A DNA stretch of 63,998 nucleotides from Psammoneis japonica (Eukaryota), in NCBI GenBank assembly GCA_008632985.1, contig QPGO01000307.1, positions 1 to 63,998 on the forward strand. Reading direction: 5' to 3'. The notes below the pieces were generated by a model, which had not been told where the DNA came from, ran no database searches, and was given only the letters and a program-made list of their open reading frames with translations. Of the stretch, positions 666-48,705 are shown in pieces (position 1 is the first letter of the stretch; each line of letters opens with the position of its first letter). Position numbers and translations under genes: made by a program.

Positions 666-2706
666 TGATGTATTCTTCTTAACAAGAAACCCGGTCTCAA
701 CCGTAGACGCTTACCGATTTCAGGAAAATCCTTTCTGGAGTCCTGTAAATGTAGCATAGTATAAGGTAGCGTAATCAATGGAACTATCGCGATTATTCAG
801 AACTTCTCTATCTATCTCTAGAATTTTTCTTCCATAAGCCCACCGGTGCTCGAATCTGCGAGTCAAAAAGCCGAAGCGCTGAGAGATTGCCCTGGGTGTT
901 GGTGTGTCCCTGCTGTTGGAGGCTCAAACTCTGACCTCTGGCCACAATGAGCGGGGCCAGAAAAGCAAGAGTGAATGCAACAGGGCAAAGAGAGGAGGTG
1001 CTTCACTGTGGCAGAGAGATGTGTTCCCGCCACACGTGAACATGCACATGAAAGAAAAAAAATGATTTTTGCATGGTTGCCAACTTGCGATGGAGGACAA
1101 AATGCCTCCCCACTTGTTTGCAATTTTTTGATGCGCCAACAAGACCTGCAACAGTGTGTGCCAAAATGAGCAGCTGCACTCCTTTCCCATTGTGTTGTGC
1201 ATCACAGCTTGAGAGTGAAGTGCCTGTGTCCTCTGTCCTTGTGAGTTGACAAATTTTGAACAAAAACTTCCAGTTGTGCAAACATTTGTCAATGGTGGCA
1301 ACAAGTTTGTGCTTTTTGCAAATTTGACAGAGCAATTTTTGTCCAGCACAAAGAGCTGATTTGAGCTGGTGGTGAAATGTTCATGCCAGGAGACATGCAG
1401 AAATGACTTCACAGTCTGAGTCATGTGCACAGAACTTGACACAGAATGATGCATCATGTTTCTTGCACAAGCCATCAGTTGTTGTGTGAATGAAATGTAA
1501 AATGGATGGTCTGTCTCAGGGGTGGGGGGATGCCCAAGGAAAGGCACATGTGTCAAAGGCAGAAGATGGAGATCATTCTTTGTCAGCCTTTTGGCAGCAG
1601 TGGGGCCAAAGAAGCTGCCATTTCAAAGACAGTGCAAGACTGCTTTCAGCACCTGGACAAGCACGACACACACATGTGAGCTCCTCCAAGCAAGACAGGG
1701 CCAGTGACTGCAGCACTCAAGAACAGGCTCAAGAGTGCACCCCAAATTGACTGAGTCCAAACCTCCAGTGAGCGTGCTTCAAAATGCAGAGACCTCCAAG
1801 AATGCCCAAAAAGCTGCACCAGCTCATGGCACCAAAACACTTTCTCAGAGAAAGAAGCAACAAGGTGGGCAGTGCTGCTGTGGACAGCAAGCAACTTTCA
1901 GCAGAGTCACGAGCAAGCTGTGCACATTGACTCAAACTCAGATTGATTGATGTCACACTCAAATTGGCTGCAGACATCCCAACAGAATCTTGAGTGCACA
2001 TGCTGGCATCACTTTCCTTGTCTCTCTTGGCACTCTGACAGCACAGATCCTGATTCTGCACTTTTGCCTTGCACCACCCTTGCTTGAGCTGCAGAAATCA
2101 AGCTCAATCAAGTTCTTGCTCCAGCTCCTCCATTGTTGGCTTTTTGCAATCAGCAGCACACTCTGCATGCTCCTGCTGAGCCAGATCAAGATCAAGGTCA
2201 AGCTCTTTTGCCTTGGCCCAGATTTTCACAAGGAACTTTGCATGATGTGAGCTGCTTTCTTCTTTTGCACTTAATTGTTTGCTGGAGCCACTTGGGTCAT
2301 GATGTCATCCTTGGAATGTTTGGAGCTGTCAAGCACCAAAGAATCTGTCAAGTCATGAAAAACTTGATCAAGAGTCTTTTGATGGTCTGGAACAGATGGC
2401 ATTGGCACAGGAATGGCTCAGAGATTTGCCACCCTGTTTGGACAGATTGGCTGGCTGAGCTCCTTGTGTGTGTGCAGCACTCCCTGGCTGGTTGCCATTT
2501 CCATTCTCCCCATGGAACAGAAGCAAAACATTCCTCAGCACATTTCCTTCTCCCTGGTTGAGTCAAAAAATTTGTCACCATTGTGTCCATGGCTGCTTGC
2601 TCCATTCTCATGCTTGGTTGCCCCCAAGAAGCCCCAGAAGCTGATGTCATCTATCCAAGCCATTGCAGGCACAAACAATGCTGTCCCCACAAGCTCTTTC
2701 AACTCA

Positions 2707-3096
2707 GACGTGTTCCAGGTCTAGGTGGGACCTCGCACTACTGAACTGTGACATCGATAGTTTTTTGAATCACGTCGTATGTCGCGCACGTAGATTTCTA
2801 CGTGATTTTTTCGATATTTTGTGTCATTTTACGGTACACTTATTGAGCGATCCGTCCAAAAACTTTTGACATTTATTGTTACAGCGCGATTCTATAATGT
2901 CTTAAGAATCGCGTAGGGCAGGTGCATTTGCAAAAACGTCGAGTGGTAAGAGGCATAATTGTACCACAAACTTGGCCGTTTATTTGATGTTGAAGATAAA
3001 TGTATCCATTAATTAAATTCTCGTACTACGGAGCTCGCACGTAGAATTCTACGGGCCCAATGTCACACGGAGTCCCACCTAGGGCTGGAACGCGTC
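2707..3096 (+). mobile_element. MITE, 390 bp, family 1 copy A (least mutated)
   Basis: TIRs GACG(T/C)GTTCCAGgtCTAGGTGGGAC ... GTCCCACCTAGggCTGGAACGCGTC. 4-bp TSD CTCA at 2703-2706 and 3097-3100. Colinear with 42690-43079. Confidence 0.92.
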
Positions 3097-4895
3097 CTCA
3101 GGCAAATCTTTGCTTGTTGTCTTTCTTGAGCACTGTGAGCCAAAGTGCCAGGCTTTGCAACAGCCACTCCATGTTTGACTGCACATGCTTGCTGAGCCAT
3201 GACCTGACATCTGTCACAGTCCACTCAACATTTTCATCATGCCACACAACAGATGGCCATTTGCCATCTTCTTCTGTGCAAACACATGAGCAAGTGTGTT
3301 GCAGATTTCTTTGTCAAGATCACTGGAACACTCCAAATCCACTTTTTCATCCCCCACAAGATTTGAGCACACTTGTGGGCATGCATCTTTGCAACACTTT
3401 CAAGGCACAGTGACGTGCAATCATCTGACAAAGCTCAGAGGATCAATCCTGCTCCAAATGGCCCACTTTGCTTTGAGTCCCACATCATGCCAAGGACATC
3501 CATTGGCCCCACATCTGACAGAAGAAAAAATGCAAACTGTTGTTCCTTCCCTTTTTGCTTGCTGAACAACAACAAAGTCTGCTGAAATGCCATGAGAAGA
3601 AATGCAACACTGGACTCAGCAAATTCAGCCAGCAACTGTGCCAGATCTCACAGGTCCAGCAAAATGTCTTGCACCTTCTCTGATTTGTGAAAGTGGCTGT
3701 TTGTGTTGTGTGCAAATGTCTCTGCTTTTTAACGCCACCTTTCATTTTTTGTGGCACCTTCACAGCTGCACTGATGAAGCAAAAGTGAAAGCAAAAACTC
3801 GCTGTTGTCAAGCTTTTGCAAGTTGGGCAAGATGACATTTAAAGTTTTTTTGTGCTGCAGGTGCGCTGCACATTTCCAAACCCTTTCGCATCAAATTTGC
3901 CTTTTGTCAGAGTGGCGCAACAAGCAAAAGAGTGAAAAGAGCTGTCTTTCCTGGTGTGTTGGAAGAGAGTTGTTCAGAGCTGATTGTCGCCAATGGTGGA
4001 AGCTCTGCAGGGAAAGCTGCGCGCCGGATTGTTCGCACTTGACATGACTGCCAACCCAACAAGCTCAGCAAAAATGGCACTCAAGGACTCTTCACTCTCT
4101 GTGTTTGCATTGCCAGTTGCACTCATGGGAACAATGGAGGAAGAAGAGTTGTGCCTCAGAGTCATCAATGAGCCACTTGGGCACACTGTTGTAAAAATGT
4201 TTGCACCTCATTGAGCGCTGGGGATTGTCAAAAAACAATTCAGCAAAGCAAATCAACTGATGAGCCATTTGGCAGAGGTTGTGCAGGTGCAGGTGCCTCA
4301 ATTTTGTTTGTGTGCTGTTTGCAGAAAAACTTTCTTGGGGTTGATGTTGCTCAGCAGCTTCTGTTGCACTTGCTCCTGTGACACACAGATGCTGTGAAGA
4401 GAAGCACATTTTTGCTTGCCACAAAGTCCAGTGAAACACTTGGCACAAAATGTGCGCACATGGGGGTTGGCACTGTTGTCCTCTGCATTGTCTGTTGCAG
4501 CTCAAAGCACATGCGCACCTCTTCTTTGATCTGGTTGAAACATCTTGAAGGCAGAAATCATGAAAACCCTGCGCAGCATGTTTTGTTGAACAGACAACTC
4601 TTGGTGAGGGCTGGCAGACAAGGTGACAAGAAATTGGCATGTGTCTCCATCACAATTTCCAGCACAAATGAGGAGGCAGGCAACTCCACGAGGCCAAACT
4701 CAGCAAAAAATGTCAAAGCCTCTCTTTGTGCAACAAGTCAAGTGATGAAATTGATTTGGCATGACACACTGCAAAGTTTTCCAAATGAAGCAGCAGGCTT
4801 GAAGTGACAGCAGCAAAAAAGAAGAAAAGCAAACAAAGAAAATGAAAACTCAAGCCGACAATTTCATGAAAATGGGCCATTTTCAAAAGAAGACA

Positions 4896-5155
4896 GGCCT
4901 GTCCCAGCTCCAGGTGATCCACTTTTCATCACACGAGAGGCCGATTTTCTGCGCAGTTTGGCGCAATTGGCTCTTTCAATTTTGATCGTTTCGAAAATCA
5001 AAAGGTGAGTGCACACCCGAAAACACGTGCAAAGTGCACACTCACCCTTTGATTTGGCAAAAAACGGATTTGGAAAAAGTCAATTGCGCCAAATGCACAA
5101 ATTGCCAAATGATGGGAATCGAAACCGAGCGGAGCACCTGGAGCTGGAACAGGCC
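4896..5155. mobile_element. MITE, 260 bp, family 2
   Basis: TIRs GGCCTGTCCCAGCTCCAGGTG ... CACCTGGAGCTGGAACAGGCC. 4-bp TSD GACA at 4892-4895 and 5156-5159. Confidence 0.88.
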
Positions 5156-5298
5156 GACAGACCTCGTCCAGCAAATGCCTCAGCTGCACACTGCAAACAA
5201 GAAACCAGTGTGTGAAAAGCCAGTTTTGGGCTGTTGAGTCCCAGCTGTCATGGGTCTTGTCACAAGGCCAGCAAATCAACATGAAAATTTCCCAATCT

Positions 5299-5690
5299 GA
5301 CGGGTTCCAGTCCCAGGTGGGACTTTTTGTGACACATTTGCCCCGCAGAATTCTGCGTGCGAGCTCTGCAGTTCGCACTGTGGTCAATGGATGTGCTCAT
5401 CTTTGACACAAAACAAGGCAGCCAAGTTTGCAGCACATGCATCTCTGTTCGCACTCGAAGTTTTGGGCAGTGCGCCTGCCCTGCGCCATTCTCAAGACAC
5501 TTGAGAATGGCGCAGAAGAAAAAAATGTAAAAAGTTGTTGAATGGATCGCCTGACAATTGCACCATAAAATGATGCAAAATTTTGCCAAAATCACATAGA
5601 AATGCACATGCGCGACATGTGATGCAATTTAAAAAACTGTCGATGCCACAGTTCTTCAGTGCGAGGTCCCACCTGGACCTGGAACGCATC
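5299..5690 (-). mobile_element. MITE, 392 bp, family 1 copy B (inverted, diverged subfamily)
   Basis: Ends GACGGGTTCCAGTCCCAGGTGGGAC ... GTCCCACCTGGACCTGGAACGCATC. 4-bp TSD ATCT at 5295-5298 and 5691-5694. Reverse complement aligns to 2707-3096. Confidence 0.9.
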
Positions 5691-6189
5691 ATCTTTTGTT
5701 CTTCGAGTGGGCCGGTTTCTTGACAAGAAGAAGCAAATGTGAGAGAGAGATCCAACATTTTCTTGCAGCCCCACATCATGAAAAACCCTCTGCAACGTTC
5801 GAGACACACTCGTCAACCTGATCGACAAAAACCGCACCGCCTCGATGTGCTCTGTTTGCCATGATGACAGTTGGCCATGACTTTCTCTTGAGCGTTGTGC
5901 GCCCAGTGTTGTTGTGCACAAACGAGGCCAAACTGACGACAGGTCATTGTCGTTAAATCGTTTTTTCCGTTGAACTCTTTATCATTTTCCGTTGGGCATT
6001 AATGCCAATGTCATGGTTAAATACTCACATGTTTTACAGTTCTTTTGCCTTTCCGAAAATGAGAGAAGGGCATAACATGAAGGAGAAAGGGGACTATGTA
6101 CTTTAGTCGCAACTGACATAGTGAGGCGGATAATGCCCCGTTTTATTGACAAAAAATAATGCCCACAGCTTACATGATAAAGGCATTAT

Positions 6190-10798: not shown

Positions 10799-12241
10799 TC
10801 ACAAAGCCGTACCGTTGTCAACAGCTAGAATGAATTTGTTGCAGGTTCTCCCGTCGTAGAATGGTCGAGCCGTTCGAAAGGCGGCAGTTGCTCCATACGT
10901 GTAAGACGGCGAGCTCGTAATGACCAAGTCCGACTCGCCAATTAGATACCAATCAATCATAGCCTCTGCAAAGTCAGCAGTAGAAGTATTTCTGCCGAGA
11001 CGGCTGTGAATACCGCGTGCGTCTGTAGTCACAATTTCTCGCGGAATGACGGTTGAATTCCATTTCCGATTCTCAACCGGTACACGTAGATTCGCATCTT
11101 GGTCATGATAAGAGTCGATGAACCATTGTTTGAAGGGTGGTAGATCCGTAACCACCATCCACAGAATCTTGGTAAATGAGATCTCGTTATCTTCGCCACC
11201 TTTAGAGAGATACTTGGCTTCGAGACTGAGAGCACAATCCACTGCCGGCTGCACCATAGAGGTACGGCGGGGACTCACTCCCTCGTTGATATTCACATTC
11301 TTTTTACCCTTCTCCGCCTTGGCAACTTTGTCAGTTTGCCCCGTTCGAACATAAATCGCCATGACCAAGGCATTCTCATCTCGCAGAGTTGGAAGGATTC
11401 TCGAGAACAAGTCTGGCTGAAACTGTGAGGCTGTGGGAGCTAAATCAAACAGTCCACCAATGGCACACGCCATTCCTGTCTCTAGCTGAAAACCTGGAAG
11501 CGCCTGCTGCAACTCTCGAAGCTTACTCTGATTTTGTACATCTCGGTGAAGCCATCGAAAATTCGGAATACGAAGCCCATTAGGAAAGTTGGGGTATTTG
11601 GCAAAGGTTTTCAGTCCACTCGTGGACCTTGTACAGTGGTTTTCACCATTACAGGAGAAATTATACGGCACGGTCCAATTCATGGGGGTCGTCTTTGATA
11701 TTGGATCCGAACCTGACAGTGGCTGAAGAACGTTTCCAATTTCAACGTTTTCTCCATAATCAAACAGAATGCGACAACCTGCCAGAGTTGCGGAGATAAA
11801 TTCCGATGCTACTCGAGCTGTCCATGCTGAGACGCCTTCGTTCCAGGCATTTTGAGGGCGGTATAACAGTATACAGTCCGTTTCTTGTTCTCTTGGTTCA
11901 GACAAGGTCCAGCTGCAGTTCTTCGCAAACTGCTCTGACCCGTATCTTGGGAAGCGGTGAGAGACATGGGAAGAAGTTTTCTGCTGCTGAACCTGAGGAT
12001 CAACTTGTAGACGAGTGCGGAGCGATGATTTCGTTGAGAGAAAGAGAGATGCTCCCGCCAATAATAGAAGAAGAATAACGTGATTCGATGTTGAATGAAA
12101 GCATGATGGTGTCACCCGAGCCTTTTCTGCTTGGTTTTTTCTTTCCTTTACAAGAGGATTATTCACGCTCCTTCTCCTTAGGCGTACATTGTGCCGAGTC
12201 TTCTCTTGAAGAACAAGGTTGGTATCTTGTTTCGTCGTCAT
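10799..12241 (-). CDS. Type II membrane protein, putative fucosyltransferase-like glycosyltransferase
   Basis: N-terminal TM anchor. Motifs MAIYVRTG, WMVVTD and AMIDWYLIGESD...YTYG resemble motifs I-III of alpha-1,2/1,6/O-fucosyltransferases. Confidence 0.7.
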   Translation of the reverse strand: MTTKQDTNLVLQEKTRHNVRLRRRSVNNPLVKERKNQAEKARVTPSCFHSTSNHVILLLLLAGASLFLSTKSSLRTRLQVDPQVQQQKTSSHVSHRFPRYGSEQFAKNCSWTLSEPREQETDCILLYRPQNAWNEGVSAWTARVASEFISATLAGCRILFDYGENVEIGNVLQPLSGSDPISKTTPMNWTVPYNFSCNGENHCTRSTSGLKTFAKYPNFPNGLRIPNFRWLHRDVQNQSKLRELQQALPGFQLETGMACAIGGLFDLAPTASQFQPDLFSRILPTLRDENALVMAIYVRTGQTDKVAKAEKGKKNVNINEGVSPRRTSMVQPAVDCALSLEAKYLSKGGEDNEISFTKILWMVVTDLPPFKQWFIDSYHDQDANLRVPVENRKWNSTVIPREIVTTDARGIHSRLGRNTSTADFAEAMIDWYLIGESDLVITSSPSYTYGATAAFRTARPFYDGRTCNKFILAVDNGTAL

Positions 12242-12532
12242 ATTCACGCGAAGTCAACACGCAAACTCAAAACGTTGTGCTCGCCCGTCGTGTCATTGGC
12301 AATCCAGAAAATCTGTCCGAATGCATTTGAACTCGAAAAATCTTCATTTCCGGAAATAACATATCTAGACTAAATTACCGCACCGGTATGTCGTGAACAA
12401 ATCTGTTGTGATGAGACAGCAACCAGCTGTCTAGAGTGCTGTAGCTAGACAACTCGCCATCTACGACGTTGCTGCTGACAATGGGCACCATTGTGAAACC
12501 GCAACTGTTGTTCAGACTTGTGGGATTCTTAG

Positions 12533-13635
12533 TTTTTGTCTTTCTTCTTTCACATGATTTGGGCCAAATCCCCACTCAAGGAGTTGAGTCTCGGACACCA
12601 CACTTCTTTTAAAAGGATGCCAAGGGAGGGCACTGGGGGGTGGCAGCTGCGACTAACAAGATCTTGCATTTCGAGGAACCCCAAGCCACTCTGGCCACAG
12701 TTTTCTTGCACCAATTTCTCTGAGCATGCCACTTTGAGAAATTCAAAAGCTCAAATTGGCAACATGTCCAGGAGTGTGTGCGCGAGAGTTGCCGCTGCTG
12801 ATCTCCCACATCATGTGACTGGCCCTCAGCAACAAACCAGGACTGTCATCACAACAAAACACAAGAAGAAGCCATGCTCACAATGTGAAAGCAGGAGTGG
12901 AGCAGGTTGAATTGATGTGCCAAAAGTGGGAGCCAATTTTTTCAGCAATGTGGGATGTCCAAATGATGGTCAGAAAAGTGACAGGCCAATGTTGCACTTT
13001 TTGTTTCGCATGTCAGGGAAGGTGCTTGCAGAGTGGTCCACAGAAGGAGACTTCTGTCTGAAACCTTGTTGTTTTGAAGAGCTCAACTTGGCATTGAAAT
13101 TCTGCAACATGATGGTTTTGCATGGCAAAACTTGTGTTCCCTGCTGTGGCTCCTGGCTGTGGCCACAGCTTTGTTTTTCTGCTTTTGTCTTTGTTGTCAC
13201 TTTTGCATGAACACTTGTCTCGTGACTGTTGCCTGTTCTTTTTTCATTGCTGAAGAGCCCATGAGAATGTGTGGCAAGAAGCAACTTGTCACAATGACAT
13301 GATCTCAGTCCGCTGTCAAGTGGCTCACTGATTTGATCCCCTTTTGCTCTTGACTCAAAGCCTCCAACTTTGGAGCAAACACCTGGAAAATTCATGTGTG
13401 CACAGCCAACTCCAACTCTGAAACTGGTCCCAGCAAGGCTCCACTCACATCCATGGTGGCCTCCTCACTTCTCCCCAGCTTTTTCAATGTTGTGACTTCA
13501 GCACAGAGAACACTGGATTTGTCAACTTTTGGTGGTTTTGCTGCTTCAACACCAGTGGAAGAGAAATCGAGATTTCAGGCTCGCATCAGGAACGTGTGAG
13601 CCGATGCCGTTTCGGAAGCCCACTCTCATGGAATG
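12533..13635. other. TpA-depleted degenerate domain B (probable pseudogene/repeat relic)
   Basis: Only two TA seen in ~1.1 kb, CpG reduced, no intact recognisable ORF. Confidence 0.8.
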
Positions 13636-14023
13636 TAGTCAAGACTGTTTGTCAAGATTGGTGGAAGCGAAAGATCGAATTCAAGCCAGCAAGTGACACG
13701 TGAACGTGTTCAGATAAGATGGAAGCTGCTTCGGAAGTTGGTTTGGTTGCTTCAGCACCAGCGGAAGAGAAATTGACATTTTAGGCTCGCGTCAGGAACG
13801 TGTAAGCCGATGCCATTTCGGACACCAACTATCAATAAAATAAAAAATGACAAACCAGCCAATGCATTGTAATTTTCAGATTATCTTTTTGTTTTGCGTG
13901 TGCTAGAACTCTTGTTGACATCGTGGTAGCCCTTCTGCCGCTTGTGCTGCGAGAACTTTTCCTCCGAGGCCTACTCTAGCTAGAGATAATAGAGGCAGTA
14001 TTTCTAGTTTGAACAAAATACAG

Positions 14024-17000
14024 TTACGCTACTGGTTGTTCCGCAGTTTCTTCTGGTCTTACGAATGCATTGCCAGTAGTCTTCTCCCATGAAAAAATGG
14101 CTTCGTTGCATCGCTGACAAGCATCGGCGTGCATCAGACCGAGCTTTCCTACCTGCTCGTCATAAAACCAACAGCGTCCACACTTTGTTCCTTGGGCTTT
14201 CTTGACACCTACAACACATCCACTTAACGTGTCGGAGGAAGAAACATATTGCTCGTCACATGCTGCTGACACCTCCTCCGCACTATCCACCAGATTCACC
14301 TGGGAGAGCATGAGAGCTGTTCGCAAATCGTCCACACCGTTGGTCTTCTCCGGTGGGTGAATAAGATTCACATCAGGAGACAGCTTGTTAAGAACTTCAC
14401 GAGTATGTTCGTCTGGAGCGTACACGACAGCTGCTGCATCTAGTGACGCACCAACGAGTTTGTCGCTACGGGCCAACTCAAGCTTTTTGTTAATGTCATC
14501 ACGAAGGTCTCGCACCAACTGCCATTGATTCCCATCGTAGTCGGGGAAATCCATCAAGTGCGTGGGCCATCCACCCTCAAAGACACTCTCCGTATCCTTT
14601 TCGTATGGCAAATTTTGCCAAATATCTTCAGCCATGTGAGGCAGGATAGAGGCTATTCCCTTGGCAAATCCTTCCAAGCAAGCGTGCAGAACCGTTTGGC
14701 AGCTTCGTCGTCGGAAGTCATCAATGGACGAGATATACAATCTATCCTTGGCAACGTCAAGGTAAAAGTTGGAAAGATCTGCTGTCGCAAAACGCAATAG
14801 CTCATTGGTGGCTCTGCTGAACTGGAACTCGTCCGTGGCTTCGTCGACTTCCTTGAGAACCGCACTGAGTCTACCGAGCATCCACTTGTCCATTGATGGA
14901 AGCTCGTCATAAGGCACTGCGTTGCTATCGGGCTGTCCTTCTGGAACAAAGTCTGCCAAGTTTCCGATAAGGTATCGAGCAGTGTTCCGAAGCTTGCGGT
15001 AGCTTTCAAACGTTTGCTTGATAATGCTGTTTCCAATACAAACGTCGCCGGAGTAGTCCACAGAGGCAACCCATAATCTTAACACATCTGCCCCATAGGC
15101 TGGTTCTTGCTTCTTGTTGTTACCACCTTCAATGACTTTGAGTGGGTCAACCACGTTGCCAAGAGACTTGGACATTTTGTAGCCTTTCTCGTCCAACACA
15201 AAGCCGTGTGTCAGCACTGTCTTGTAAGGCGCCTTGTTGTTGGCAGCCACACTCGTCAAGAGACTGCTCTGAAACCAACCTCGATGCTGGTCACTACCCT
15301 CCAAGTAAATGTCTGCAGGGTACTCGAGTTCGTCTCGTGCATTCGCAACACCAGCCCAACTGGATCCAGAGTCAAACCACACGTCCATGGTATCTGTTCC
15401 TTTCTTCCACTTATCTGCTTGGTCCTTGTACATGTCTGGCAGCAAGTCTTTTTCATCCATGGTCCACCACGCGTCACTACCGTGCTCCGCAAACAACTTT
15501 TGGGTATGTTCTAGAGTATGCTCGTCTAGCAAGACTTCCTTACCAGTTTCCTTGTCGTAAAACACGGGAATGGGGACACCCCAGGATCGTTGGCGAGAAA
15601 TGCACCAATCGCCACGGCCCTCCACAAACGACGTGATTCGGTTCTTTCCCATCTCTGGCACCCAACGAACCTATTAAAGCAAACGAGAGTAGAACGACCC
15701 AAAAATGAGCTTTCCGGTAGGCGCGAAAATCCAATCTGTTCTGGTTTCTTTGGGCGTCAGGGTTAAAAAGCTCGATACATTTTAAGCAGCAGTCGTAGTG
15801 CTTACTACGCTCAGACCCTCAGGATAGAATGATTTTTTCGTCACTCGCCCGCATTTTTACATACAACCACACTGCACACTGAAACGGTGCACTTACCGTA
15901 TCAACAGCCTCCAGTGCGGCATCTCTGAATCCCTCCACACTAGCAAACCACTGATCGGTCGCACGAAAGATCGTTGGTTTCTTGGTACGCCAATCATATG
16001 GGTACTTGTGTCCATAGTCCTCCGCTTTCAAGAGAGCCCCGGTCTTTTCCAATGCATCGACAACAGCTTGGTTACCCTCTCCCAAGACTTTGAGTCCAGC
16101 AAATTCTTCTCCAGCTTCCTTTGTAAACACGCCCAAGTCATCCACGGGGCTGAGCAATTCCAAACCATTTTTCAAACCCGTCTGATAATCCTCCTGACCA
16201 TGTCCGGGAGCGGTGTGTACTAGACCTGTTCCTGATTCAGTTGTAATGTAGTCGCCCCCTGCCAAAACCGGTGACGTTCTGTCGTACAGAGGGTGGACGT
16301 AGTTCGTACCAATCAAGTCGTCTCCCTTTAGATTCGCCAGTACCTCAAACTTCTCTCCCTCTGGTAAGCCAAACTTTTCCTGAAACGAATAAGGGCAACA
16401 ATATATGTATTGTAAGATGAGAAGAAGACTCGATTGGCAAGACATGTTGCTACGAGTGCACATACCGCCAGCGATGACGCCAAGTCTGTAGCCACTAACA
16501 ACTTTCCAGTCTTCTCGTGGGTAACTACAGAGTATCCAAGATGAGGATTGATTGCAACGGCCAAGTTTGCAGGCATGGTCCACGGCGTGGTTGTCCAAAT
16601 GGCAACCTTGAGTGGCTCTTCCTCGGAATGGTATTCCGCAAGTGCCTCTGACGGGGTTGTAACTTCCATGGCAACATAGATACTTTTCGAAACATGTCCC
16701 TCAGGATACTCCAATTCAGCTTCAGCCAAGGCCGTTTTCGAACTCGGCGACCAATGCACAGGTTTGCGACCACGAAAAATGTAACCCTTCTTGTACATTT
16801 CACCAAAGACTCCAATCTGAGCCGCTTCAAAATCGGGTTGGAGTGTCAAGTAAGGATTCTCAAAATCCCCAATCACGCCATATCGTTTAAAGGACTCGGC
16901 CTGCTTTTCCACTGTTTCCATGGCAAACTTTGCCGCCCTTTCTCTTAATTTAATGGGCGTCAGTCCCTGCCGTTCCTTGGATTTCATTTTCTGAAGCACC

Positions 17001-17589
17001 TTCAATTCAATAGGCAGTCCGTGACAATCCCAACCGGGCACATAATGAACTTGTTTGCCTTTCAGAATGGCTTTGCGATTAATAAAATCCTTCAACAACT
17101 TGTTGAGCGCATGTCCAATGTGCAAATCACCATTGGCATAGGGCGGTCCATCGTGAAGAATAAACTTGTCTGTTCCGCGCTCGGCCGCTTGATCCGACAA
17201 TTTTTGATACAAATTGTAATCCTTCCAAAATTTCTGCAGTTCTGGTTCACGCTTTATCGCATTGGCCCGTTGACTGAAATCTGTTTCGGGAAGCAAAATG
17301 GTAGAAGCAAAGGCATTCTTGGGTTTCTTTTTTTGTTGTTGCTTGCCACCGCCTTTTCCTTTTCCTAGCAAAGAACAAATAGATAAAAACATGAATGAGG
17401 GATAAATATGCTTCAGATAGACAAAGATACAGTAAGATACTCACCTTGTGCTGCGAGAGACGTGGTTGTTGCCGTAACCGATCGAACTTGTCTCGCTATT
17501 GCGGTCCTTGGCGCTGTAAAACATGCCACCTTTCCTCCCAGCGACGCCATCACCGAGAGGAACACCATGATGGAGGGCTCAATTTTCAT
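14024..17589 (-). CDS. ileS: Isoleucine--tRNA ligase, organellar/bacterial type, 4 exons (17589-17445, 17364-16466, 16379-15897, 15670-14024)
   Basis: DGPPYANGDLHIGH, GWDCHGLPIE, WTTTPWT, GTGLVH, WCISRQRSWG, EGSDQHRGWF, KMSKS and a C-terminal CGRCW...CQRC zinc finger. GT-AG introns restore the frame. Confidence 0.96.
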
Positions 17590-31960: not shown

Positions 31961-33965
31961 GTGGTCTTGTTGGAGGTGGAAGTGCAGGAGAAAGCACAAA
32001 GATCACTGTGATTTGGCTCAGCATCACCGGCTACATTGCCTGCAACAGCTGCATCACTGCCCGAGCTGTTTTTTGGCAGAACACCATGGTCAAGAAAAGG
32101 CTGCTGCCATGAAAACAATGGGGTTGGCATGCCCAATTCATGTGGGCAATTGTTTGGCATGTTGACTCTTGGAGAACAGGAGATCTTGAAATGGCTTGCA
32201 AAACTTTGAGCCCAATGACAAAACATGTCCACCAGAACCAAAGCATGAAGAAACAATGAGATTTTGATGTGGAGAGGGGTCACAGTGGGCCCAGCATCTG
32301 CTCAGAGAAGTTGAGATGATGGGGGGTGGACAAGGTTTGTTCGAAAGAACACAGCTGGACAAAATTTGCAATTTCAACCTTTGGTCTCATGCTTTGTGTT
32401 GGAAATTGGTGCTGTGTTGAAAGCAGGCAGGAAATGCACACTGGCTACCTTCATTTGAGCAATGTGTCAAATGGCATTTTTCTGTCTTCAGGTCCAACAA
32501 TGTTGCCAAAAGCTGACATGCTCACAACATGTGCAAGCATGAGAAGATGGAAAGCAGCAAGGCTCAGCAAGCCATTTTTCCAGCTTGAGTCACAGCCACC
32601 TTGGCAGCATCTCTGCCACAGTGACCTTGGCCAAGGGCTCCAAGCTCCAAAGTGACAGCAACACGGAGCAAGATCCAGCTCCACAAGAATCAGTGTTGAC
32701 AACAAGCACACATGCACTTGCTGCACAAAATGCTTTGCTGGTCAACAAAGCCAAGCTTCAGACTGCCATCCAGGAGCTCAAGTTTGCAGCTGCAGATCTT
32801 GAGCCAACCAGCACTGTGCTGGTGTGTTGGAAAAAATGAGGGCATTGTCAAAGTGCCAGCTGCAGCAAAAAACAAAATTGCCATGCTCCAGATTGTTGTC
32901 TTGCAGCAGCTGGCAAGGAGAACTTGGAATTTTGCATTGTGCACACAAGTCACTTTCTGAAGTGAGTGCTTGCATTGACTGCCATGGCCAGTCTCTTTCC
33001 AGAAAGAACAAAAAGTGCTCTGGAGCAAAATGAGAAAAAAGGAAGCTTGCTTCTCAAGTTGTGAACCTTGCTGAGTTGCAACTTGACAGCGCCACCACCT
33101 TGACCAATCAAAGCCAAGAGCAGGAGATTGGCAAAACAAAGAGCAACAGATCTGACACCTCAATGATGCTCTGGCACAAGAAGTGCAAGTTTCAAATCAA
33201 ACTCTGAGCATTGATCTCAGTCAGTTGTGGCTGCACAAAGTGCAGCTGCCAGTCATGTCAATTGGTTGAATGAGCAGATTTGAGACTTCAGAGAGGAGAA
33301 AAGGAGCTGCAGGTGTGTGTGCAATGGGGGGTGCTGTTCTTTAGATTGAGTCATGGGGTGGTCTTTTCTAATCACAGTTCACCAGCATTGATGGTTTGCT
33401 GCACCGCAATCCCATGGATGCATGAAGTGAGGTGTGCAGCACATTGCCACACTTTCATCTTTCCAACACCGTCACATCCGTCGCACATGTGTTTGGGTGT
33501 TGATGGGAGCTGATGTGCGGACGTGTGCACAACACATGCATGACTTTGCATGTTTGAGCACCATCATTCAGACAGCATTGTTGCCCTTTTTGTTGTGCAC
33601 AAACAGGGCACATTTTCAAAGAATGTTGCAAACTTTTTGATGGCATTGTCTGGTGTCATTCTGCACAACAAGTGTGGCACAGCAGCACACTGTCTTGATG
33701 CCAATTGGTGATCAGGGAATCACATCCTGGCATCAAACACAATCTCAACCAACCAGCCATGATGAATCCAGCAATGGCAGCATTGGAAATCACACCCAGT
33801 GGGTGCAGACAACTCCATGCTGTGACACCCAGTGCCAGGGGAGATTATTCAAGAAATCTGGACGAAACCTCTGCCTCCAAGCGCGCGTTGCCTGATCGTA
33901 CCGTACGCACTGTAGATGCCCTCTTTTCGACTTCTTCAGTTCCCGGAACTATGACGTGACACGCA

Positions 33966-38336: not shown

Positions 38337-38445
38337 TCTAAAAAAGTATGGTTTTGGATGCGGCGACTTGTCGATGACAACACAGCTGATGAGATGACTG
38401 TAAAGGCAGCCAGCAGAGATGGCAACAAGGATGTTTGTAAAATAC

Positions 38446-38564
38446 GAATGGGATGCACGAAGAAGAAACCGAAAGTGTGTCGATGCAGATGACACACGAA
38501 TGGCATGCACGAAAAAGAAACCGAACGTGGGTTGATCAAGATGACACACGAATGGGATGCACGA
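38446..38564. repeat. ~52-bp tandem repeat x2.3
   Basis: CGAATGG(G/C)ATGCACGAA occurs three times, with GAAACCGAA and AGATGACACA repeated between. Confidence 0.7.
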
Positions 38565-38982
38565 ATCATCATCTTTGCCGGTAGTGGCAACTTAGCTACA
38601 ACTAATCTCTAAGCTAGAGCTCTCTCTACTAGAGTAGAGCTTTACTCTAGAGTAAATAGTAGTAGAGAGAACATATTACTTGTAGCAGCTTGTTAGTACC
38701 GGCACCGTAACACCGAAGGTTAGACTGAAGACGCGCAGACAGATTGACATAGTTTTATTCAACCCTTACATGACGGTATAAAAGTATTTATCTGAGTCGT
38801 GCGTGCGTTTCGAGCCGATCTTTCGCGCAAAAAACGCGCGAAATTCTCGCAACAGAATTCTTTCTCACAAAACAGAACGAATCGTCAGCCAGCAGCTTCT
38901 CACTTTTCGTGTGGAAGCAAAAAGAAACAGGCATGATTGGAGTTGACAAGCTGTTGATTTGTTTCTCTATTGACCCATCGTC

Positions 38983-39981
38983 ATGGAAAACAAGTCGATA
39001 ATTCCGTTACGTCAGCCTCCGACAAGGAGAGTGACAATCACTCGTCACATCACGGCGGCGGCAGCACATTCGAATCATCATCATGCTCGTCATGCTGGTA
39101 TTGATGCATACAAGAGAAACATTATGGCTGGAAGCATGGCTGGAGTAACATCCACGAGTTTGTTTTATCCATTGGATGTGCTTCGTACCAAAATGCAGTC
39201 TTCTGGTAAAAAACGTACGCCGCTACGAGAATTCTTTACCAAGACGATTCGACGTGGCGGCGGTCTCCAAGTGTTGTATACGGGCCTGTCTCTGCCACTG
39301 TCGGCACAGGCCGTGTACAAGGCGACGCTCTTTACAGTCAATGGTGCTTCCAAGACGCATCTGTTGGAATACAAGCGGCAAGTGCATGGCAAGGATTATC
39401 AATTATCACTGCAAGACGAATTCATGTGTGGAGCTCTGGGTGGTGCCGTGAATGCTGCGCTCTTTGTCACGCCCGTGGAGTTTGTACGCAACCAGCTAAT
39501 TGCTCAGCAACCGCGTACTGTAGCATCTGGTCCGATTCAGGTGGTAAAACGCACCCTATACGAGCAAGGAATTGCGGGTTTGTGGCGTGGAGCCGCCGTT
39601 ACCGTCACGCGCGATGCGTTGGGATGGGGCTTTTCCTTTTATGTCTATCATTCGTGCCGTGCCCATCTTGAATCAAAATACAGGGATGCGGTGGATCCAA
39701 ATGCAATCACAATAGTTTCGGGTGCCATTACGGGTATTAGTTTCTGGTTGGTAGCCTTGCCCCTGGATACAGCCAAGACGTTGGTTCAGAATGGATCTGC
39801 TCCGTCGGCAAGGGTTGCCCTTCAAGAATCGTTGCGTGCCAGGGGTCCGTGGAGAACCATGCTTCGGTTCTGTCGAGGATGGCAGTTTGCGTTTGGGAAA
39901 GGAGCACCCGCTGCTGCAGTGACTTTGAGTACATTTGACGTTTGTTCTCGGACGATTTCAGAATATAGATGGATAGAGTAG
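38983..39981 (+). CDS. Mitochondrial carrier (SLC25) family protein, paralog 2
   Basis: PLDVLRTKMQ, PVEFVRNQL and PLDTAKTLVQ. Clear paralog of 18197-19183. Confidence 0.92.
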   Translation: MENKSIIPLRQPPTRRVTITRHITAAAAHSNHHHARHAGIDAYKRNIMAGSMAGVTSTSLFYPLDVLRTKMQSSGKKRTPLREFFTKTIRRGGGLQVLYTGLSLPLSAQAVYKATLFTVNGASKTHLLEYKRQVHGKDYQLSLQDEFMCGALGGAVNAALFVTPVEFVRNQLIAQQPRTVASGPIQVVKRTLYEQGIAGLWRGAAVTVTRDALGWGFSFYVYHSCRAHLESKYRDAVDPNAITIVSGAITGISFWLVALPLDTAKTLVQNGSAPSARVALQESLRARGPWRTMLRFCRGWQFAFGKGAPAAAVTLSTFDVCSRTISEYRWIE

Positions 39982-41059
39982 TTGACAGTAGAAATGAATG
40001 GTTCGTATGATGTTTGTGGATACGTTTGTGCGTATGTTTCAGTTTACCAGTGAAGCAGCAAGTCGTTTTCACAGCCGTCCATTATAATTGTATTGATTCA
40101 ATTTAACATAGCATCCATGCAAGCCTTCCACTGAAACCTCCATCTGCAGCCGATGGCATATGCATCAGTAGTTTTCAGGTTGAGCTCATGCGAGGAATCC
40201 ATCTTGAGATTTTTGGATCTGCTTGCCGCTATCAAACCAGAGCTGAATATGTGCGGACTCAATGGTAGTCATCGCTTTGCTTTTGAAGCGCCGAGACCTT
40301 GTCTTGATTCGGCGAGTCGAATAGCTCGTAGATGCTGTTTGTTGGGCGCACACCCGGTCGCACACTATCAACAGATGCTGTGTGGCTGCTGTTTCTCCTC
40401 CACAAAGCAAGTTCGGATCTTTCTGCTCGAGCACACTGCCAGATCAAATGACTTGCAAAGTCTGGGAGTTCTCCCATCACTTCCACCCGTAGTTGGTCAA
40501 GCCTCGCACCCCTAGTGTCATTTTGACACGGGGAAGCACGTGTTGCCGAGGTGATTCGCATGTCCTCGCACACGGTTGCCAAAGTTTGACAGTTGCGCTC
40601 CCCGTTACGAACAAGCGACAACACACCCCGTGGAAGAGAGTCTGGTTAAAAACTGCCAGGATGGCCACTGGACAAGGAAACGTGTCATTTTTATTACGTT
40701 CATGCAAGGAAACCAAAAGACAGCCCACGGCCATTCCCAGATGCCAACTGTTTGAGATAAAATGCAGAGACTGCATGCACCATCCTGATCTTGAATTCTG
40801 CCATGTAACGTCTGGCACCACCAAGCATGCCGGGATCCCCAATCCTGAATTTTCATCTGCCATTCTTGGCCATGTGCTTCATGGTGCCACCACACACACC
40901 AGTGGCATCCAAGGCGCAGTTTGATCCCAGCTTGCTAACATGCACCAACTGTGGGCCACTTCCTTCATCATCTGTTTCTTCCGTGCATGAGTGCTCTGCC
41001 TGAATCTTCAACACGAGTTTGCCACCAGCAGCACTTGCTGCTTTCTCATGCTCTTTGTG

Positions 41060-41200
41060 GTCAGGTGGTTGGGAACCAAAGGGCAGCTGTCGCAAGCATC
41101 TCCAATGCGCCATTGCCATTGCTGTCAGCCTGGTCAGGATTCAAAACCAAGGGGCAGTTGTCCCTGTCATTAAGAACGCCATCACCAGCAGCGTCCCTGA
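41060..41200 (-). pseudogene. Thrombospondin type-3 (Ca-binding) repeat relic
   Basis: DAAGDGVLNDRDNCPLVLNPDQADSNGNG, then after a frameshift IGDACDSCPLVPN. Confidence 0.7.
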
Positions 41201-42236
41201 GCTTCAAAACAAAAAGACACCGCAACCTCCATTCTGCCCCTTCATCATAAAAAAGAGCATTTTGCTGCAAAGCTTGCACGCAGCATTCTGCAGGCCCAAT
41301 GTCACAGGGAGTCCCAACCAGGATTAAAGCCCATCAGCCGCACGAATTTTTCAACATGCCCTGACAGCAATCACAATTTTGCTGAAGTTTTGAGCTCTTC
41401 CAAAAAATTGCACCACTCATCACTGGGAATTTGTCAATTTTTTAAGAAGTCCCCACGAACCCCAATGTCCTCAATGGCCATTCTCAGAATGCAAACAACA
41501 TGTGTGTGCCAAATGAACCATGCTGATTTGTTCTCTGAGGGACACACTTTCAATTGCCGACCAGCCGACCCGCCGACCCGCCAACCCACCGACTCACTGA
41601 CCTGCCGACCCACTGACCCACTGACCCACCGACCCACCAACACACTGACACACCAACACACTGATTGACTGACTGACTGACACAAAAAAGTCTGCAATCA
41701 CCAACCACCGAGTGGTCAATCACAGTTAATTTGTTGATTTTTTAGGAAGTCCCCACGAACCCCAATGTCCTCAATGATCGTTCTCAGAATGCAAACAACA
41801 TGTGTGTGCCAAACAAACCATGCTGATCCGTTCTCTGAGGGACACACTTTCAATTGCCGATCGGCCACCTGACCGACCCACCAACCCGCCCACCTGCCAA
41901 CCCGCCAACCCGCCCACCTGCCGACCCGCCGACCCGCCAACCCACCGACCCACCGACCCGCCGACCCACCAACAGACTGACACACACCAACACACCAACA
42001 CACTGATTGACTGACTGACTGACACAAAAAAGTCTGCAATCACCAACCACCGAGTGGTCAATCACAGTTAATTTGTTGATTTTTTAGGAAGTCCCCACGA
42101 ACCCCAATGTCCTCAATGATCGTTCTCAGAATGCAAACAACATGTGTGTGCCAAACAAACCATGCTGATCCGTTCTCTGAGGGACACACTTTCAATTGCC
42201 GATCGGCCACCTGACCGACCCACCAACCCGCCGACC

Positions 42237-42326
42237 NNNNNNNNNNNNNNNNNNNNNNNNNNNNNNNNNNNNNNNNNNNNNNNNNNNNNNNNNNNNNNNN
42301 NNNNNNNNNNNNNNNNNNNNNNNNNN
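42237..42326. other. Assembly gap (N run)
   Basis: Run of n. Confidence 1.
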
Positions 42327-42689
42327 GCACAAATGACACACAGAGATTGTGTTTCCATGTCTGCACATGAAATCTTGATCGTTGATTTAAAAGCAACCAA
42401 CCGACCCACCAACCTGCCGACCCGCCGACCTGCTGACCAACTGACCCGCTGACCTGCCGACCCGCTGACCCGCTGACCCGCCAACCCACCGACCCACCGA
42501 CCCGCCGACCCACCGACCTGCCGACCCACCGACCCGCCGACCTGCCGACCTGCCGACCCGCCGACCCGTTGTTCTCAGAATGCAAACAACATGTGTGTGC
42601 CAAACAAACCATGCTGATCTGTTCTCTGAGGGACACACTTTCAATTGCCGACCGGCCGACTGACCGACCCACCAACCAACCCACCGACT

Positions 42690-43079
42690 GACGCGTTCCA
42701 GGTCTAGGTGGGACCTCATGCTGCTGAACTGTGACATCGACAGTTTTTTGAATCACGTCGCATGTCGCGCACGTAGATTTCTACGTGATTTTTTTGATGT
42801 TTTGTGTCATTTTACGGTGCACTTGTTGAGTGATCCGTCCAACAACTTTTGACATTTTTTGTTACAGCACAATTCTACAATGTCTTAAGAATCGCACAGG
42901 GCAGGTGCATTTGCAAAAACGTCGAGTGGCAAGAGGCACAATTGTGCCACAAACTTGGCCGTTCATTTGATGTTGAAGATGAGTGCATTCATCAATTAAA
43001 TTCTCGCACTGCGGAGCTGGCACGCAGAATTCCATGGACCCAATGTCACACGGAGTCCCACCTGGGGCTGGAACGCGTC
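42690..43079 (+). mobile_element. MITE, 390 bp, family 1 copy C (partly hypermutated)
   Basis: Same TIRs and colinear interior as 2707-3096. Flanks GACT/AACC are explicable as a GACC TSD after CpG decay at each junction. Confidence 0.92.
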
Positions 43080-43974
43080 AACCCACCAACCCACCAACAC
43101 GCCGACCACCGACCCGCCAAAACCGTCCCGCTGACCCACCTGCCCACCGACCCACCAACACACCGACACACTGATTGACTGACTCACTGACACAAAAAGT
43201 CTGCAATCACCAACCACCGAGTGGTCAATCGCAGGGAATTTGTCAATTTTTTAGGAAGTTCCAACGAACCCCAATGTCCTCAATGCTGATTGACTGACTG
43301 ACTGACACAAAAAAGTCTGCAATCACCAACCACCGAGTGGTCAATCGCAGGGAATTTGTCAACTTTTTAGGAAGTTCCCACGAACCCCAATGTCCTCAAT
43401 GATCATTCTCAGAATGCAAACAACATGTGTGTGCCAAATAAACCATGCTGATCCGTTCTCTGAGGGACACACTTTCAATTGCCGACCCGCCGACCCGCCG
43501 ACATGCCGACACACCGACACACTGACACACTGACACACTGACTGACTGACTGACTGACACGAAAAAGTCTGCAATCACCAACCACCGAGTGGTCAATGAA
43601 AAGTCTGCAATCACCAACCACCGAGTGGTCAATGAAAATCCTTATATGATGATGATGTTGTTTCTTGTTTCTGACGACTGACGACAGACGTACCGGTGCT
43701 AGTTGATACGTCTATGACCGACCAATGACTGAATGACTGTCAGCAGTCACTCTTGACAGGGCATAAGAATACACAATGTCTCTTCCTAAGTAGTGCAATG
43801 AATGTCACAAATTCAAAATGCGCAAATAATAAGCCCCACTGAAGCACGTTTTCCACAACGCATTGCACGATGAAAAATTTTGTAGTCTTCGAATAGTCGT
43901 CGTCTCTTCGTGCTGTTTCTCTATCGCAGTTTCCTCTCCGCAATCAAAATCAGACGAGCGGAAGAAAAGACGAC

Positions 43975-47146: not shown

Positions 47147-47292
47147 CTTAACGGTAGTGGTCAGATTTCAAAATCTGAGCAATACAGAAATGTCAATGAT
47201 GAATAAGGATTTTAGATTGCTTCTGCCGTAAATATCATTACGCCAATGCCACTAATGAATACACAAATGAATTTGTATTCCATCCTTTTCCT

Positions 47293-47569
47293 NNNNNNNN
47301 NNNNNNNNNNNNNNNNNNNNNNNNNNNNNNNNNNNNNNNNNNNNNNNNNNNNNNNNNNNNNNNNNNNNNNNNNNNNNNNNNNNNNNNNNNNNNNNNNNNN
47401 NNNNNNNNNNNNNNNNNNNNNNNNNNNNNNNNNNNNNNNNNNNNNNNNNNNNNNNNNNNNNNNNNNNNNNNNNNNNNNNNNNNNNNNNNNNNNNNNNNNN
47501 NNNNNNNNNNNNNNNNNNNNNNNNNNNNNNNNNNNNNNNNNNNNNNNNNNNNNNNNNNNNNNNNNNNNN
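47293..47569. other. Assembly gap (N run)
   Basis: Run of n. Confidence 1.
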
Positions 47570-48705
47570 GACAGCACTTTCTGCTGTCAGCAAAGAGTGT
47601 GAGCTGGCTGGACTGCCCAACCCCACACTTCACAGTTCCTTGGCAGTCACTCCAAATCAAGTGCCAGCTTGGGACCAACTGCACCTGGCTGGTTGCAATG
47701 CAAAGACAGCTGTGACAGCAATTTGTGACAACAAGAGAGTGTGAGCTGGCTGGGCTCCTGACCCCAGCACAGCCACTTCACAGCCCCTCAGCACTGGCTC
47801 CCAATCAAATGCCAACTTGGTGCCAACAGCCACAAAGCCATTGTTGCAGATCTCTGCACCTGGCCCCTCACACAACATGTGTGGCCTTTGCAAAATGGGC
47901 CCCTGGCCAACTGCAGACTCCTCATGGCTTGCAACAAGCCACCACAACACAGAGCATTGTGGGGTGAATGCAGCACAGCTTGAGCAAGCAAGCCATGCTG
48001 GAAGCACTGAGAGCTGGCTGCTGTCCTGGAGCTCCATTCAAAGCTGAGCTGGGCTGCTTGGCTCCTTGGTGGGTGGCACATGCTTGCTTGGCATCACATT
48101 GTTGCCAAGCAGAGCCACATGGCATGTGCCCACCATTTGTGCCTGCAACAGTGATCCCTGGCCACAAAAAAGCCAACAAAAAGTTGAGCCTGCTTTTGTG
48201 GTTGAAGGGTGAAGAAATTGTGAGTGAGGTTGGGTTCAAGAGTTTGTTGGCAATGCCAAGTGGGCAGCCAAAGAGAGGCACCAAAAATGACTGTGTGAAG
48301 TGTCTCTCACTCATTTCTCAAGAGGAGCTTGTGCTCATGATGCGGGGTCTGAAGCAAGCACCAGTCAAGAGGACAACAATTCTTTCCCTCTCTGTTCCAC
48401 CCAAAACACAGCCTTTGAGTCAATGTGGTGCTCCTTCAACAATTGATGCACACACTGGGAGGAGCAGCTGTGGAGCCAGGGCAGCAGGCCTGGCAGGGCT
48501 TGGCTCACAACCAAGCTGGGCTTCTCAGCTTGGCAGCACACACTCAGAGTCACATTGTTGCCCTCCTGCAGCTGCAATGTGCCCCACTCTTTGCACCTGC
48601 AGCAACCACCCTGGACCAAAAGAAGCCAGTGCAACTCTGGCCCTGGTTGCATGGTCAAATTGTGTGTGTGTTCAATTGTCGGAATCCCCTCCTTTTTTCC
48701 CTTTT
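47570..48705. other. TpA- and CpG-depleted degenerate domain F
   Basis: No TA seen and almost no CG in ~1.1 kb. Internal ~140-bp duplication starting GAGTGTGAGCTGGCTGG. Confidence 0.85.

Follow-up and report, generated by a model that had tools for sequence, protein, structure and literature searches.

Introduction

To our knowledge, removal of TpA from DNA had not been described for any cellular process before 2026. Repeat-induced point mutation (RIP) of ascomycetes, which is tied to duplication and to the sexual cycle, changes C to T mainly at CpA and thereby creates TpA. Natural enzymes of the TadA/ADAT family act on tRNA, where an A that follows U in the anticodon loop is converted to inosine and read as G, the native TadA site being U-A-C-G in tRNA-Arg, and ADAR is a metazoan enzyme that works on RNA and prefers a 3' G. 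Here we describe a 63,998-nt stretch of the diatom Psammoneis japonica (contig QPGO01000307.1 of assembly GCA_008632985.1, forward strand, with 63,630 non-N bases; hereafter the window), in which seven blocks have lost almost every TpA (TA), probably through a mutator that turns TA into TG or CA.

The closest described system is the TpA hypermutation of the chlorarachniophyte Bigelowiella natans (Mettrop et al., bioRxiv 10.64898/2026.01.13.699255). In mutation-accumulation lines of this alga, 231 of 302 de novo single-nucleotide mutations fell in two integrated viral regions, one of a giant virus and one of a virophage, and 230 of these 231 were A>G or T>C, all on TpA and in some lines only, at a rate about 1000 times the background. 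According to the same preprint, the genome carries 124 clusters that are depleted in TpA and enriched in CpA and TpG, and an ADAT2-like protein was proposed as the candidate enzyme; natural activity on DNA is cited there for a few ADAT2 proteins only. The main text of the preprint is silent on diatoms, CpG and trinucleotide context. Full-text searches of the literature found this preprint as the sole description of the signature and found none for diatoms. An earlier note on the P. japonica DNA, made from its sequence, had stated that it knew of no described system with this signature; since the 2026 report on B. natans, in which delimited regions undergo the same TpA>TpG/CpA hypermutation, this is outdated.

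The features shared at the level of sequence suggest that the P. japonica blocks and the B. natans regions reflect the same kind of system. In both, A>G or T>C changes at TpA give TpG or CpA depending on the strand, both strands are hit, and the changes are confined to delimited regions beside normal DNA; in both, TpA-poor and CpA+TpG-rich clusters form the long-term trace, the process appears episodic, and an adenine deaminase has been proposed. The two differ in host, B. natans being a rhizarian and P. japonica a stramenopile, and in targets, which are viral in B. natans whereas those recognised here are inverted-repeat elements, a satellite and a gene-fragment repeat, with no viral genes seen in the scanned open reading frames (ORFs). 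Depletion here is at saturation (observed/expected ratio, o/e, 0.00-0.03) and covers 28% of the window, compared with a Rho of 0.45 for the giant-virus region of B. natans. In addition, CpG is lost in the same blocks here, and both CpG and the 3' pyrimidine preference proposed below are absent from the main text on B. natans, in which the events are de novo, whereas those described here are historical traces only. The present locus thus adds a diatom host, saturated TA loss, mobile-element, satellite and gene-relic targets, a co-occurring but independent CpG decay and an inferred T-A-Y target (Y, pyrimidine).

RIP resembles the pattern described here in that near-saturating transitions at one dinucleotide affect mobile or duplicated DNA block by block, destroy its coding capacity and are associated with methylation, and diatom DNMT4 enzymes group with the RIP factor RID (PMC9998398). 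However, the two are opposite in direction, because here TpA is destroyed and G+C rises. Most blocks are now single copy. Decay of methylated CpG accounts for the CG deficit and for part of the TG and CA excess in the blocks, but it cannot remove TA.

Seven sharply bounded blocks nearly free of TA

Blocks were delimited through the gaps between successive TAs, and composition was also followed in a 500-nt sliding window. Seven blocks were obtained, together 17,864 nt (28% of the window), with 45,766 nt remaining outside. The blocks contain 45 TA sites (o/e 0.04) compared with 1865 outside (o/e 0.58), and CG is reduced as well (o/e 0.34 versus 0.98). The dinucleotides raised are only TG (1921 sites, o/e 1.86 versus 1.17 outside), CA (1999 sites, 1.66 versus 1.18) and, less so, GC (1.20 versus 1.04); AT is lower (0.79 versus 0.93), and neither AA (1.24 versus 1.15) nor TT (1.29 versus 1.17) is depleted. 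G+C content in the blocks is 0.47-0.53. Run across the window, the sliding-window analysis revealed TA troughs with TG and CA peaks, with values in the blocks of 0.00-0.1 for TA, 1.6-2.0 for TG and CA and 0.0-0.6 for CG. Block edges are sharp to about 100 nt, and TA spacing is normal up to the blocks. All six TA-poor domains delineated in the earlier note were recovered by the gap analysis at their original coordinates.

To assess whether such runs could arise by chance, 200 sequences were simulated with a first-order Markov model that had the dinucleotide frequencies of the window. The longest simulated TA-free gap was 411 nt, and gaps of at least 300 nt occurred 0.17 times per run on average (maximum 2), whereas the window contains 21 such gaps, one of them spanning a run of 277 N, with the longest reaching 1509 nt.

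The leftmost block (836-5953) is split into two parts by a TA-normal 390-bp element at 2707-3096. Its left part (836-2651) is poor in both dinucleotides, with 2 TA (o/e 0.02) and a CG o/e of 0.12 beside TG at 1.87 and CA at 1.73, and has no Pfam match, while the right part (3081-5953; 7 TA, o/e 0.03; CG 0.41) has lost CG on its left and partly kept it on its right, CG o/e being 0.4-0.96 from position 4500, where TA is 0. The block at 12655-13635 lies between two genes (0 TA; CG o/e 0.24), and that at 19802-21658 occupies the whole spacer between the genes for a mitochondrial carrier and an agmatine deiminase (1 TA; CG o/e 0.26). The largest block (27392-33845) has 14 TA (o/e 0.03) and a CG o/e of 0.32. 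A weaker, TA-poor block at 40810-43642 (21 TA, o/e 0.13; CG 0.72) consists of a satellite and one copy of the 390-bp element, and the last block (47570-48709), whose left edge is hidden by an N gap (47293-47569), has 0 TA and is practically free of CG (2 sites, o/e 0.02), with TG at 2.02 and CA at 1.81. Inverted-repeat elements, a satellite and a gene relic, with which the earlier note had associated the depletion, are all found inside the blocks.

Direction of change

The largest block contains the relic of a 1,3-beta-glucan (callose-type) synthase gene (27485-28089, minus strand), identified by two Pfam Glucan_synthase matches (E 3.8e-26 and 2.7e-8) and by blastx pieces. Relative to the 1801-residue best match (P0001), the piece at 27688-28089 corresponds to residues ~1120-1254 and that at 27485-27640 to residues ~1341-1392; the homologues are diatom proteins of about 1700-1800 residues, the named top relatives being Cylindrotheca, Chaetoceros, Bacillariaceae sp. 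and Eucampia at 59-63% identity. To judge polarity, the relic was compared with 82 full-length diatom homologues at the 162 positions where at least 80% of these share a residue. The relic retains the conserved residue at 112 of the 162 positions but at none of the nine that are tyrosine (Fisher p = 1.5e-5); six of the lost tyrosines have become Cys, and one each His, Gln and Phe. The relic has 15 A>G changes that are unambiguous and need a single step, and a T precedes the A in 13 of them, compared with an expected share of 15.3% derived from the window's genes (p = 1.9e-9), showing that A>G is far commoner at TA than elsewhere in the relic.

Paralogous copies point in the same direction. The relic was compared with contigs from two public runs of one sample (X1 and X2) at a likeness of at least 90%, and a sample of 40 of the 335 differences was inspected. 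In all 13 transition differences of this sample, located at 27528-28332, the window has G or C where the paralogous contig has A or T, and in 10 of them the contig restores TA (eight from CA and two from TG).

Three copies of the 390-bp inverted-repeat element form a decay series. Copy A (2707-3096, plus strand), which lies in a TA-free block, is pristine, with terminal inverted repeats free of mismatches at both ends and CTCA on both flanks. Copy B (42690-43079, plus strand), inserted in the satellite, is half-way hypermutated and 90.8% identical to A, and copy C (5298-5691, minus strand) is old, fully hypermutated and 75% identical to A. In 401 aligned nucleotides, copy A has 29 TA and 28 CG, so that the element is not natively free of TA; copy B retains 8 of the 29 TA sites and has 22 CG, and copy C retains 2 and has 16 CG, its 27 lost TA sites now reading TG (13), CA (7) or other (7). 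The observation in the earlier note that TA stands opposite CA or TG among homologous copies is borne out by these three. The 36 differences between A and B comprise 8 TA>TG, 12 TA>CA, 7 CpG transitions and 9 others; from A to B, 23 of the 36 are A>G or T>C, with 8 of 10 A>G and 12 of 13 T>C at TA, and the remaining transitions are mostly at CpG. Divergence per nucleotide is 0.585 at TA, 0.144 at CG and 0.033 elsewhere, which for this one element pair puts the loss of TA at about 18 times the rate of ordinary sites and about four times that of CpG. At four sites CA in copy B stands opposite TG in copy C, a combination that requires an ancestral TA.

A 96-nt duplicate provides a further comparison, with one copy at the right edge of block 12655-13635 (13533-13628) and the other outside it (13739-13834); the two TA of the outside copy are CA and TG inside. 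Collectively, the relic, the paralogous contigs, the element copies and the 96-nt duplicate constitute four independent lines of sequence comparison, all indicating that TA is the ancestral state. The directional, strand-symmetric A>G (T>C) change at 5'-TA proposed in the earlier note is upheld by the polarity of relic and contigs, by the copy series and by the random interleaving of TG and CA.

Strand and sequence context of the changes

The order of TG and CA along the seven blocks gives runs-test z values from -1.99 to +0.87, and control regions fall in that range too. This random interleaving indicates that each site and each strand was hit independently, without long one-strand tracts. 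Kataegis-like models and models of RNA editing on one strand were dropped, because strand-coordinated clusters of TG or CA are absent by the runs test.

The 45 surviving TAs are mostly TAA and TTAA, with TAG also among them. None is in the context RTAY (R, purine), where a pyrimidine comes after the A on both strands, while 21 are mixed and 24 are YTAR, compared with 540, 1032 and 298, respectively, outside the blocks (chi-square p = 1.3e-11). When the satellite block, whose units are not independent, is left out, the survivors number 0, 14 and 10 (p = 2.5e-4). Changes away from TA have a related context: a 3' pyrimidine follows the changed A in 14 of the 17 A>G events that the element copies show outside TA, compared with a base rate of 54% (p = 0.015), and CAC accounts for 6 of the 17, compared with a base rate of 9.8% (p = 0.004); the three non-TA events between the relic and the contigs are at CAC, AAC and GAC. 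TGC/GCA shows the largest excess among the TGN trinucleotides in the blocks. The target therefore looks graded in the order T-A-Y > T-A-G > T-A-A, with C-A-C as a weak secondary site, the T-A-Y part being drawn from the survivor contexts and the non-TA events rather than from a direct test on polarised events.

TA loss, CpG decay and timing

Loss of TA and decay of CpG are separable, as the earlier note had argued. TA is gone while CG is near normal at 27392-28700 (CG o/e 0.6-1.06) and at 4500-5950, and copy B, with 8 of 29 TA sites left, has 22 CG where copy A has 28. Decay of methylated CpG alone would fit the CG loss that is seen across the blocks (o/e 0.34), but the loss of TA is larger (o/e 0.04).

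GCGC is the sole CG-containing tetranucleotide that is undepleted in the blocks (22.5 versus 23.4 per 10,000), the others being down three- to five-fold. Its retention may reflect escape from methylation, or the creation of new CGC/GCG by A>G at CAC, the commonest non-TA event.

A young element of 2255 bp at 25228-27482, with 19-nt terminal inverted repeats and ACCA on both flanks, abuts the largest block but is not itself hypermutated (TA o/e 0.45-1.0). It is present in high copy, its word depth in X1 reaching ~3978 compared with ~57 for single-copy DNA, and in one X1 contig position 25222 is followed directly by 27482, as expected of an empty site. An element with 48-nt inverted repeats (98% complementary) is nested in it at 25244-26576. 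Because this element and copy A are both untouched, the mutator cannot have been continuously active on everything in a block, which suggests that these insertions are very recent or that the mutator is episodic. GTTCCAG at the ends of the 2255-bp element is also present in the 390-bp element, which may place both in a single superfamily.

The earlier note had held that the process acts on repeated or silenced DNA. The confinement to blocks with element copies, a satellite and a gene relic agrees with this, but targeting of repeated DNA as such did not emerge: most block DNA is at single-copy depth today (19802-21658 and 29174-33842) and the high-copy young elements are unmutated, while the left 1.7 kb of the largest block is multi-copy. 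More precisely, this left part belongs to a repeat family with an X1 depth of 750-1985 (27173-29173), and the rest of the largest block is single copy at a depth of 47-80 (29174-33842).

Contents of the blocks

Of 146 stop-to-stop ORFs of at least 70 aa in the blocks, 139 were scanned against Pfam, the seven left out lying in or next to N runs and the satellite. No significant family was found for 137 of the 139, the only matches being the two glucan-synthase pieces, and neither viral or transposase domains nor a reverse-transcriptase relic appeared among the 139. The satellite gave three sub-threshold Pfam matches (TSP_3, Glug and PT). For a 221-aa ORF at 28163-28825, an exhaustive search returned a single weak match (E 3.4e-5). 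A transition-blind repeat search, with sequences coded as purines and pyrimidines, connected the blocks through the 390-bp element and the satellite but through no further family.

The satellite (41419-43640) has tandem units of 300, 342, 116 and 8 nt. Its 300-, 342- and 116-nt units are built on CCGACCCA-like 8-mers, and it has a strong strand bias of C over G, with GC skew reaching -0.27.

The glucan-synthase fragment at 27636-28328 has an X1 depth of ~750, which corresponds to about 13 copies at a likeness of at least 90%. Run X2, which is cDNA-like, contains a related copy with its TAs intact (a 798-nt contig with 43 differences and 10 gaps). A multi-copy fragment with a TA-intact relative seems to represent a gene piece that was captured and spread by a mobile element; its parent gene was not found in the material searched.

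Read support and occurrence in environmental diatoms

A word depth of ~57 in X1 corresponds to single copy. One X1 contig of 5722 nt spans 18101-23821, including the whole of block 19802-21658, at a depth of 59 and with only three other letters and three gaps, so that the TG and CA alleles of this block are reproduced in a public run. A sequencing artefact is also hard to reconcile with graded, context-dependent decay and with polarity at the protein level. Of the three outcomes that the earlier note had named as refuting its reading, none was observed: the TG and CA alleles are present in the contigs, copy A is rich in TA and A>G is concentrated at TA.

Over the single-copy part of the largest block (29174-33842), X1 contigs are short (420-984 nt) and differ at 32 of 2797 letters (1.1%), and over the genes together with block 19802-21658 (14500-23821) they differ at 18 of 9957 letters (0.18%). 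Allelic or strain diversity may be higher in 29174-33842. For 12001-22000, no RNA run was listed among the public data. Run X2, labelled 'DNA?', behaves like cDNA. It gives no cover over 19836-21169 and 29174-33842, which was not used as evidence of silence.

Among 75 metagenome loci around glucan-synthase genes of environmental diatoms, the only TA-free gaps are four of 253-386 nt, in two G+C-rich loci. None of these loci is close to the relic, the best reaching 74-77% identity over 145-278 nt.

Proposed mechanism and alternative explanations

The evidence on direction, context and confinement makes it likely that the silent blocks were saturated by a context-specific mutator converting TA to TG or CA, and that their composition reflects mutation rather than a native property. 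The blocks would be silenced, largely mobile-element-derived diatom DNA, in which the mutator would replace the adenine of 5'-TA by guanine on one strand or the other, yielding TG or CA, until saturation is reached. Its agent would be an enzyme with a sequence preference of its own that converts adenine to hypoxanthine, which is copied as G; the enzyme would be directed to silent or foreign DNA and would work in episodes, while ordinary decay of methylated CpG would act in the same blocks. The single type of change (A>G), the 5' T, the 3' pyrimidine, the independence of the strands and the sharp edges argue for an enzyme with a sequence preference acting on marked DNA, and the shared loss of CpG suggests methylated, silent chromatin as what marks the blocks. 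Adenine deamination would be the simplest chemistry, with TadA-family enzymes as natural candidates. A DNA adenine deaminase of the TadA/ADAT2 kind could thus plausibly be the agent, an assignment we make tentatively. The engineered variant TadA-8e A48E prefers 'YAC' (review PMC13109818), which resembles the T-A-Y and C-A-C pattern found here as a likeness of context only.

Several observations weigh against this interpretation or narrow its basis. No deaminase occurs among the ORFs of the window, so the deaminase mechanism is inference only. Most block DNA is without a recognisable ancestor, and polarity thus rests on the relic, the element copies and one 96-nt duplicate. The 8-nt satellite units of the CCGACCCA type are natively without TA, and part of the depletion at 40810-43642 therefore need not be mutational. 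As for the context preference, a 3' pyrimidine on the edited strand is present in 14 of 20 informative polarised TA events, which is not significant (p = 0.12); in the relic alone the edited A is followed by T six times, by A twice and by C twice; and the context estimates based on composition take genic DNA as their baseline, which may differ from the ancestors of the blocks. Copies B and C are both changed at 17 sites and in the same way at 13 of them, which may reflect shared ancestry of a mutated copy rather than context preference. Runs X1 and X2 may be the assembly's own source, in which case their support for the alleles would not be independent of the sequencing platform and would not speak against an artefact specific to it. 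The 75 environmental loci (688 kb, much of it the gene itself or transcript-like) contain no TA-free block, a weak negative.

Among the alternatives, a modified-base route would invoke a palindromic mark on TpA in silent chromatin, such as N6-methyladenine, that is deaminated or miscopied in the way of 5-methylcytosine at CpG. It has some appeal, as TA is self-reverse-complementary like CG, the strands are hit independently, and the losses of TA and CG share the same blocks; it is nevertheless unlikely, because the non-TA events at CAC and other N-A-Y sites fit a graded enzyme preference better than a palindromic mark, and because TA is lost where CG is intact. The coincidence of TA and CpG losses would also be expected of error-prone patch repair, in which deamination of 5-methylcytosine yields T:G mismatches that attract mismatch repair and a Pol eta-like polymerase whose errors fall at WA (W, A or T). 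The errors of Pol eta are indeed rich in A>G at WA, and the earlier note had listed this polymerase as a candidate. It fits poorly: WA includes AA, yet AA and TT are undepleted in the blocks; resistance is highest at TAA and TTAA; at 27392-28700 TA has disappeared although CpG is almost intact; and copy B has 20 TA changes compared with only 7 CpG changes. We regard patch repair as distinctly improbable.

RNA-level editing would require an ADAR-like enzyme to hyper-edit element transcripts that are then copied back into DNA. This is very hard to reconcile with the targets, which are cut-and-paste-type elements, a satellite and heterogeneous blocks of up to 6.5 kb, with no reverse-transcriptase relic in the scanned ORFs. 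ADAR would be expected to leave strand-coordinated clusters, whereas TG and CA here lack such runs, and its preference for a 3' G is unmatched, since a 3' pyrimidine is preferred in the blocks and TAG is among the survivors. What the two have in common is the A>G change, the aim at repeats and viruses and the 5' T preference, which parallels the preference for a 5' U that the B. natans preprint (bioRxiv 10.64898/2026.01.13.699255) quotes for ADAR. The blocks might, finally, reflect no mutation process at all, their composition being native to foreign DNA, maintained by selection against TA or produced by a sequencing or assembly artefact. The natively TA-free satellite units, the scarcity of identifiable ancestors and the possible identity of the supporting runs with the assembly data would all accord with this. 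It is largely refuted, and very little probability remains for it, given that polarity was obtained in three ways (tyrosine loss, paralogous contigs and the copy series), that decay is graded with age, that survivors depend on context and that a contig of a public run reproduces a block.

Flanking genes and host lineage

The ORFs flanking the TA-free blocks are ordinary eukaryotic nuclear genes. They encode a Brr2-type helicase, a class I tRNA synthetase with short introns, two mitochondrial carriers (18197-19183 and 38983-39981), an agmatine deiminase, located on the other side of spacer block 19802-21658 from the mitochondrial-carrier gene, a 2-hydroxyacid dehydrogenase, a TPR/STI1 protein, a metallophosphoesterase and an FAD/NAD reductase. 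The two mitochondrial-carrier paralogues are on the same strand, 20 kb apart, with a DNA identity of 65-67%. One mitochondrial carrier has no near-identical entry in the collection searched; its best match is at 60%, and its best named relatives are Seminavis, Leptocylindrus, Nitzschia, Mayamaea and Fistulifera at 36-42%. Judged by the relatives of its genes, the DNA of the window is that of a diatom and not of Bigelowiella.

In the tRNA-synthetase region (14500-17784), one X2 contig aligns in four pieces and skips 226, 86 and 80 nt in an intron-like manner. Short tandem repeats also occur outside the TA-free blocks, at 49251-49414 (39/81 nt; His- and Glu-rich if translated) and at 38444-38565 (52 nt).

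Biological implications

The process described here would have shaped a large share of the non-genic DNA (28% of the window). A signature of this kind in a diatom would show that the process is not peculiar to one strain, and its machinery would probably be shared across distant algal lineages. Going further, it is possible, though this is the more speculative step, that diatoms and chlorarachniophytes share an episodic, TadA/ADAT-like DNA-editing defence that targets T-A-pyrimidine in silenced mobile or foreign DNA and forms the A:T counterpart of RIP. If so, this shared defence would erase every TA fast, ahead of CpG decay, and with it tyrosine codons, TAA and TAG stops, TATA-like motifs and TA target sites.

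The graded series of element copies offers a handle for measuring rates, and the motif of T-A-Y, weaker C-A-C and resistant T-A-A can be compared with the de novo mutations of B. natans and with candidate deaminases. TA-free runs with doubled TG+CA provide a simple scan statistic for mapping the trait across protists. If the shared defence exists, the enzyme should be identifiable by comparing genomes that carry the signature with genomes that lack it; it would be a natural editor of adenine in double-stranded DNA and as such also of interest for base-editing work.

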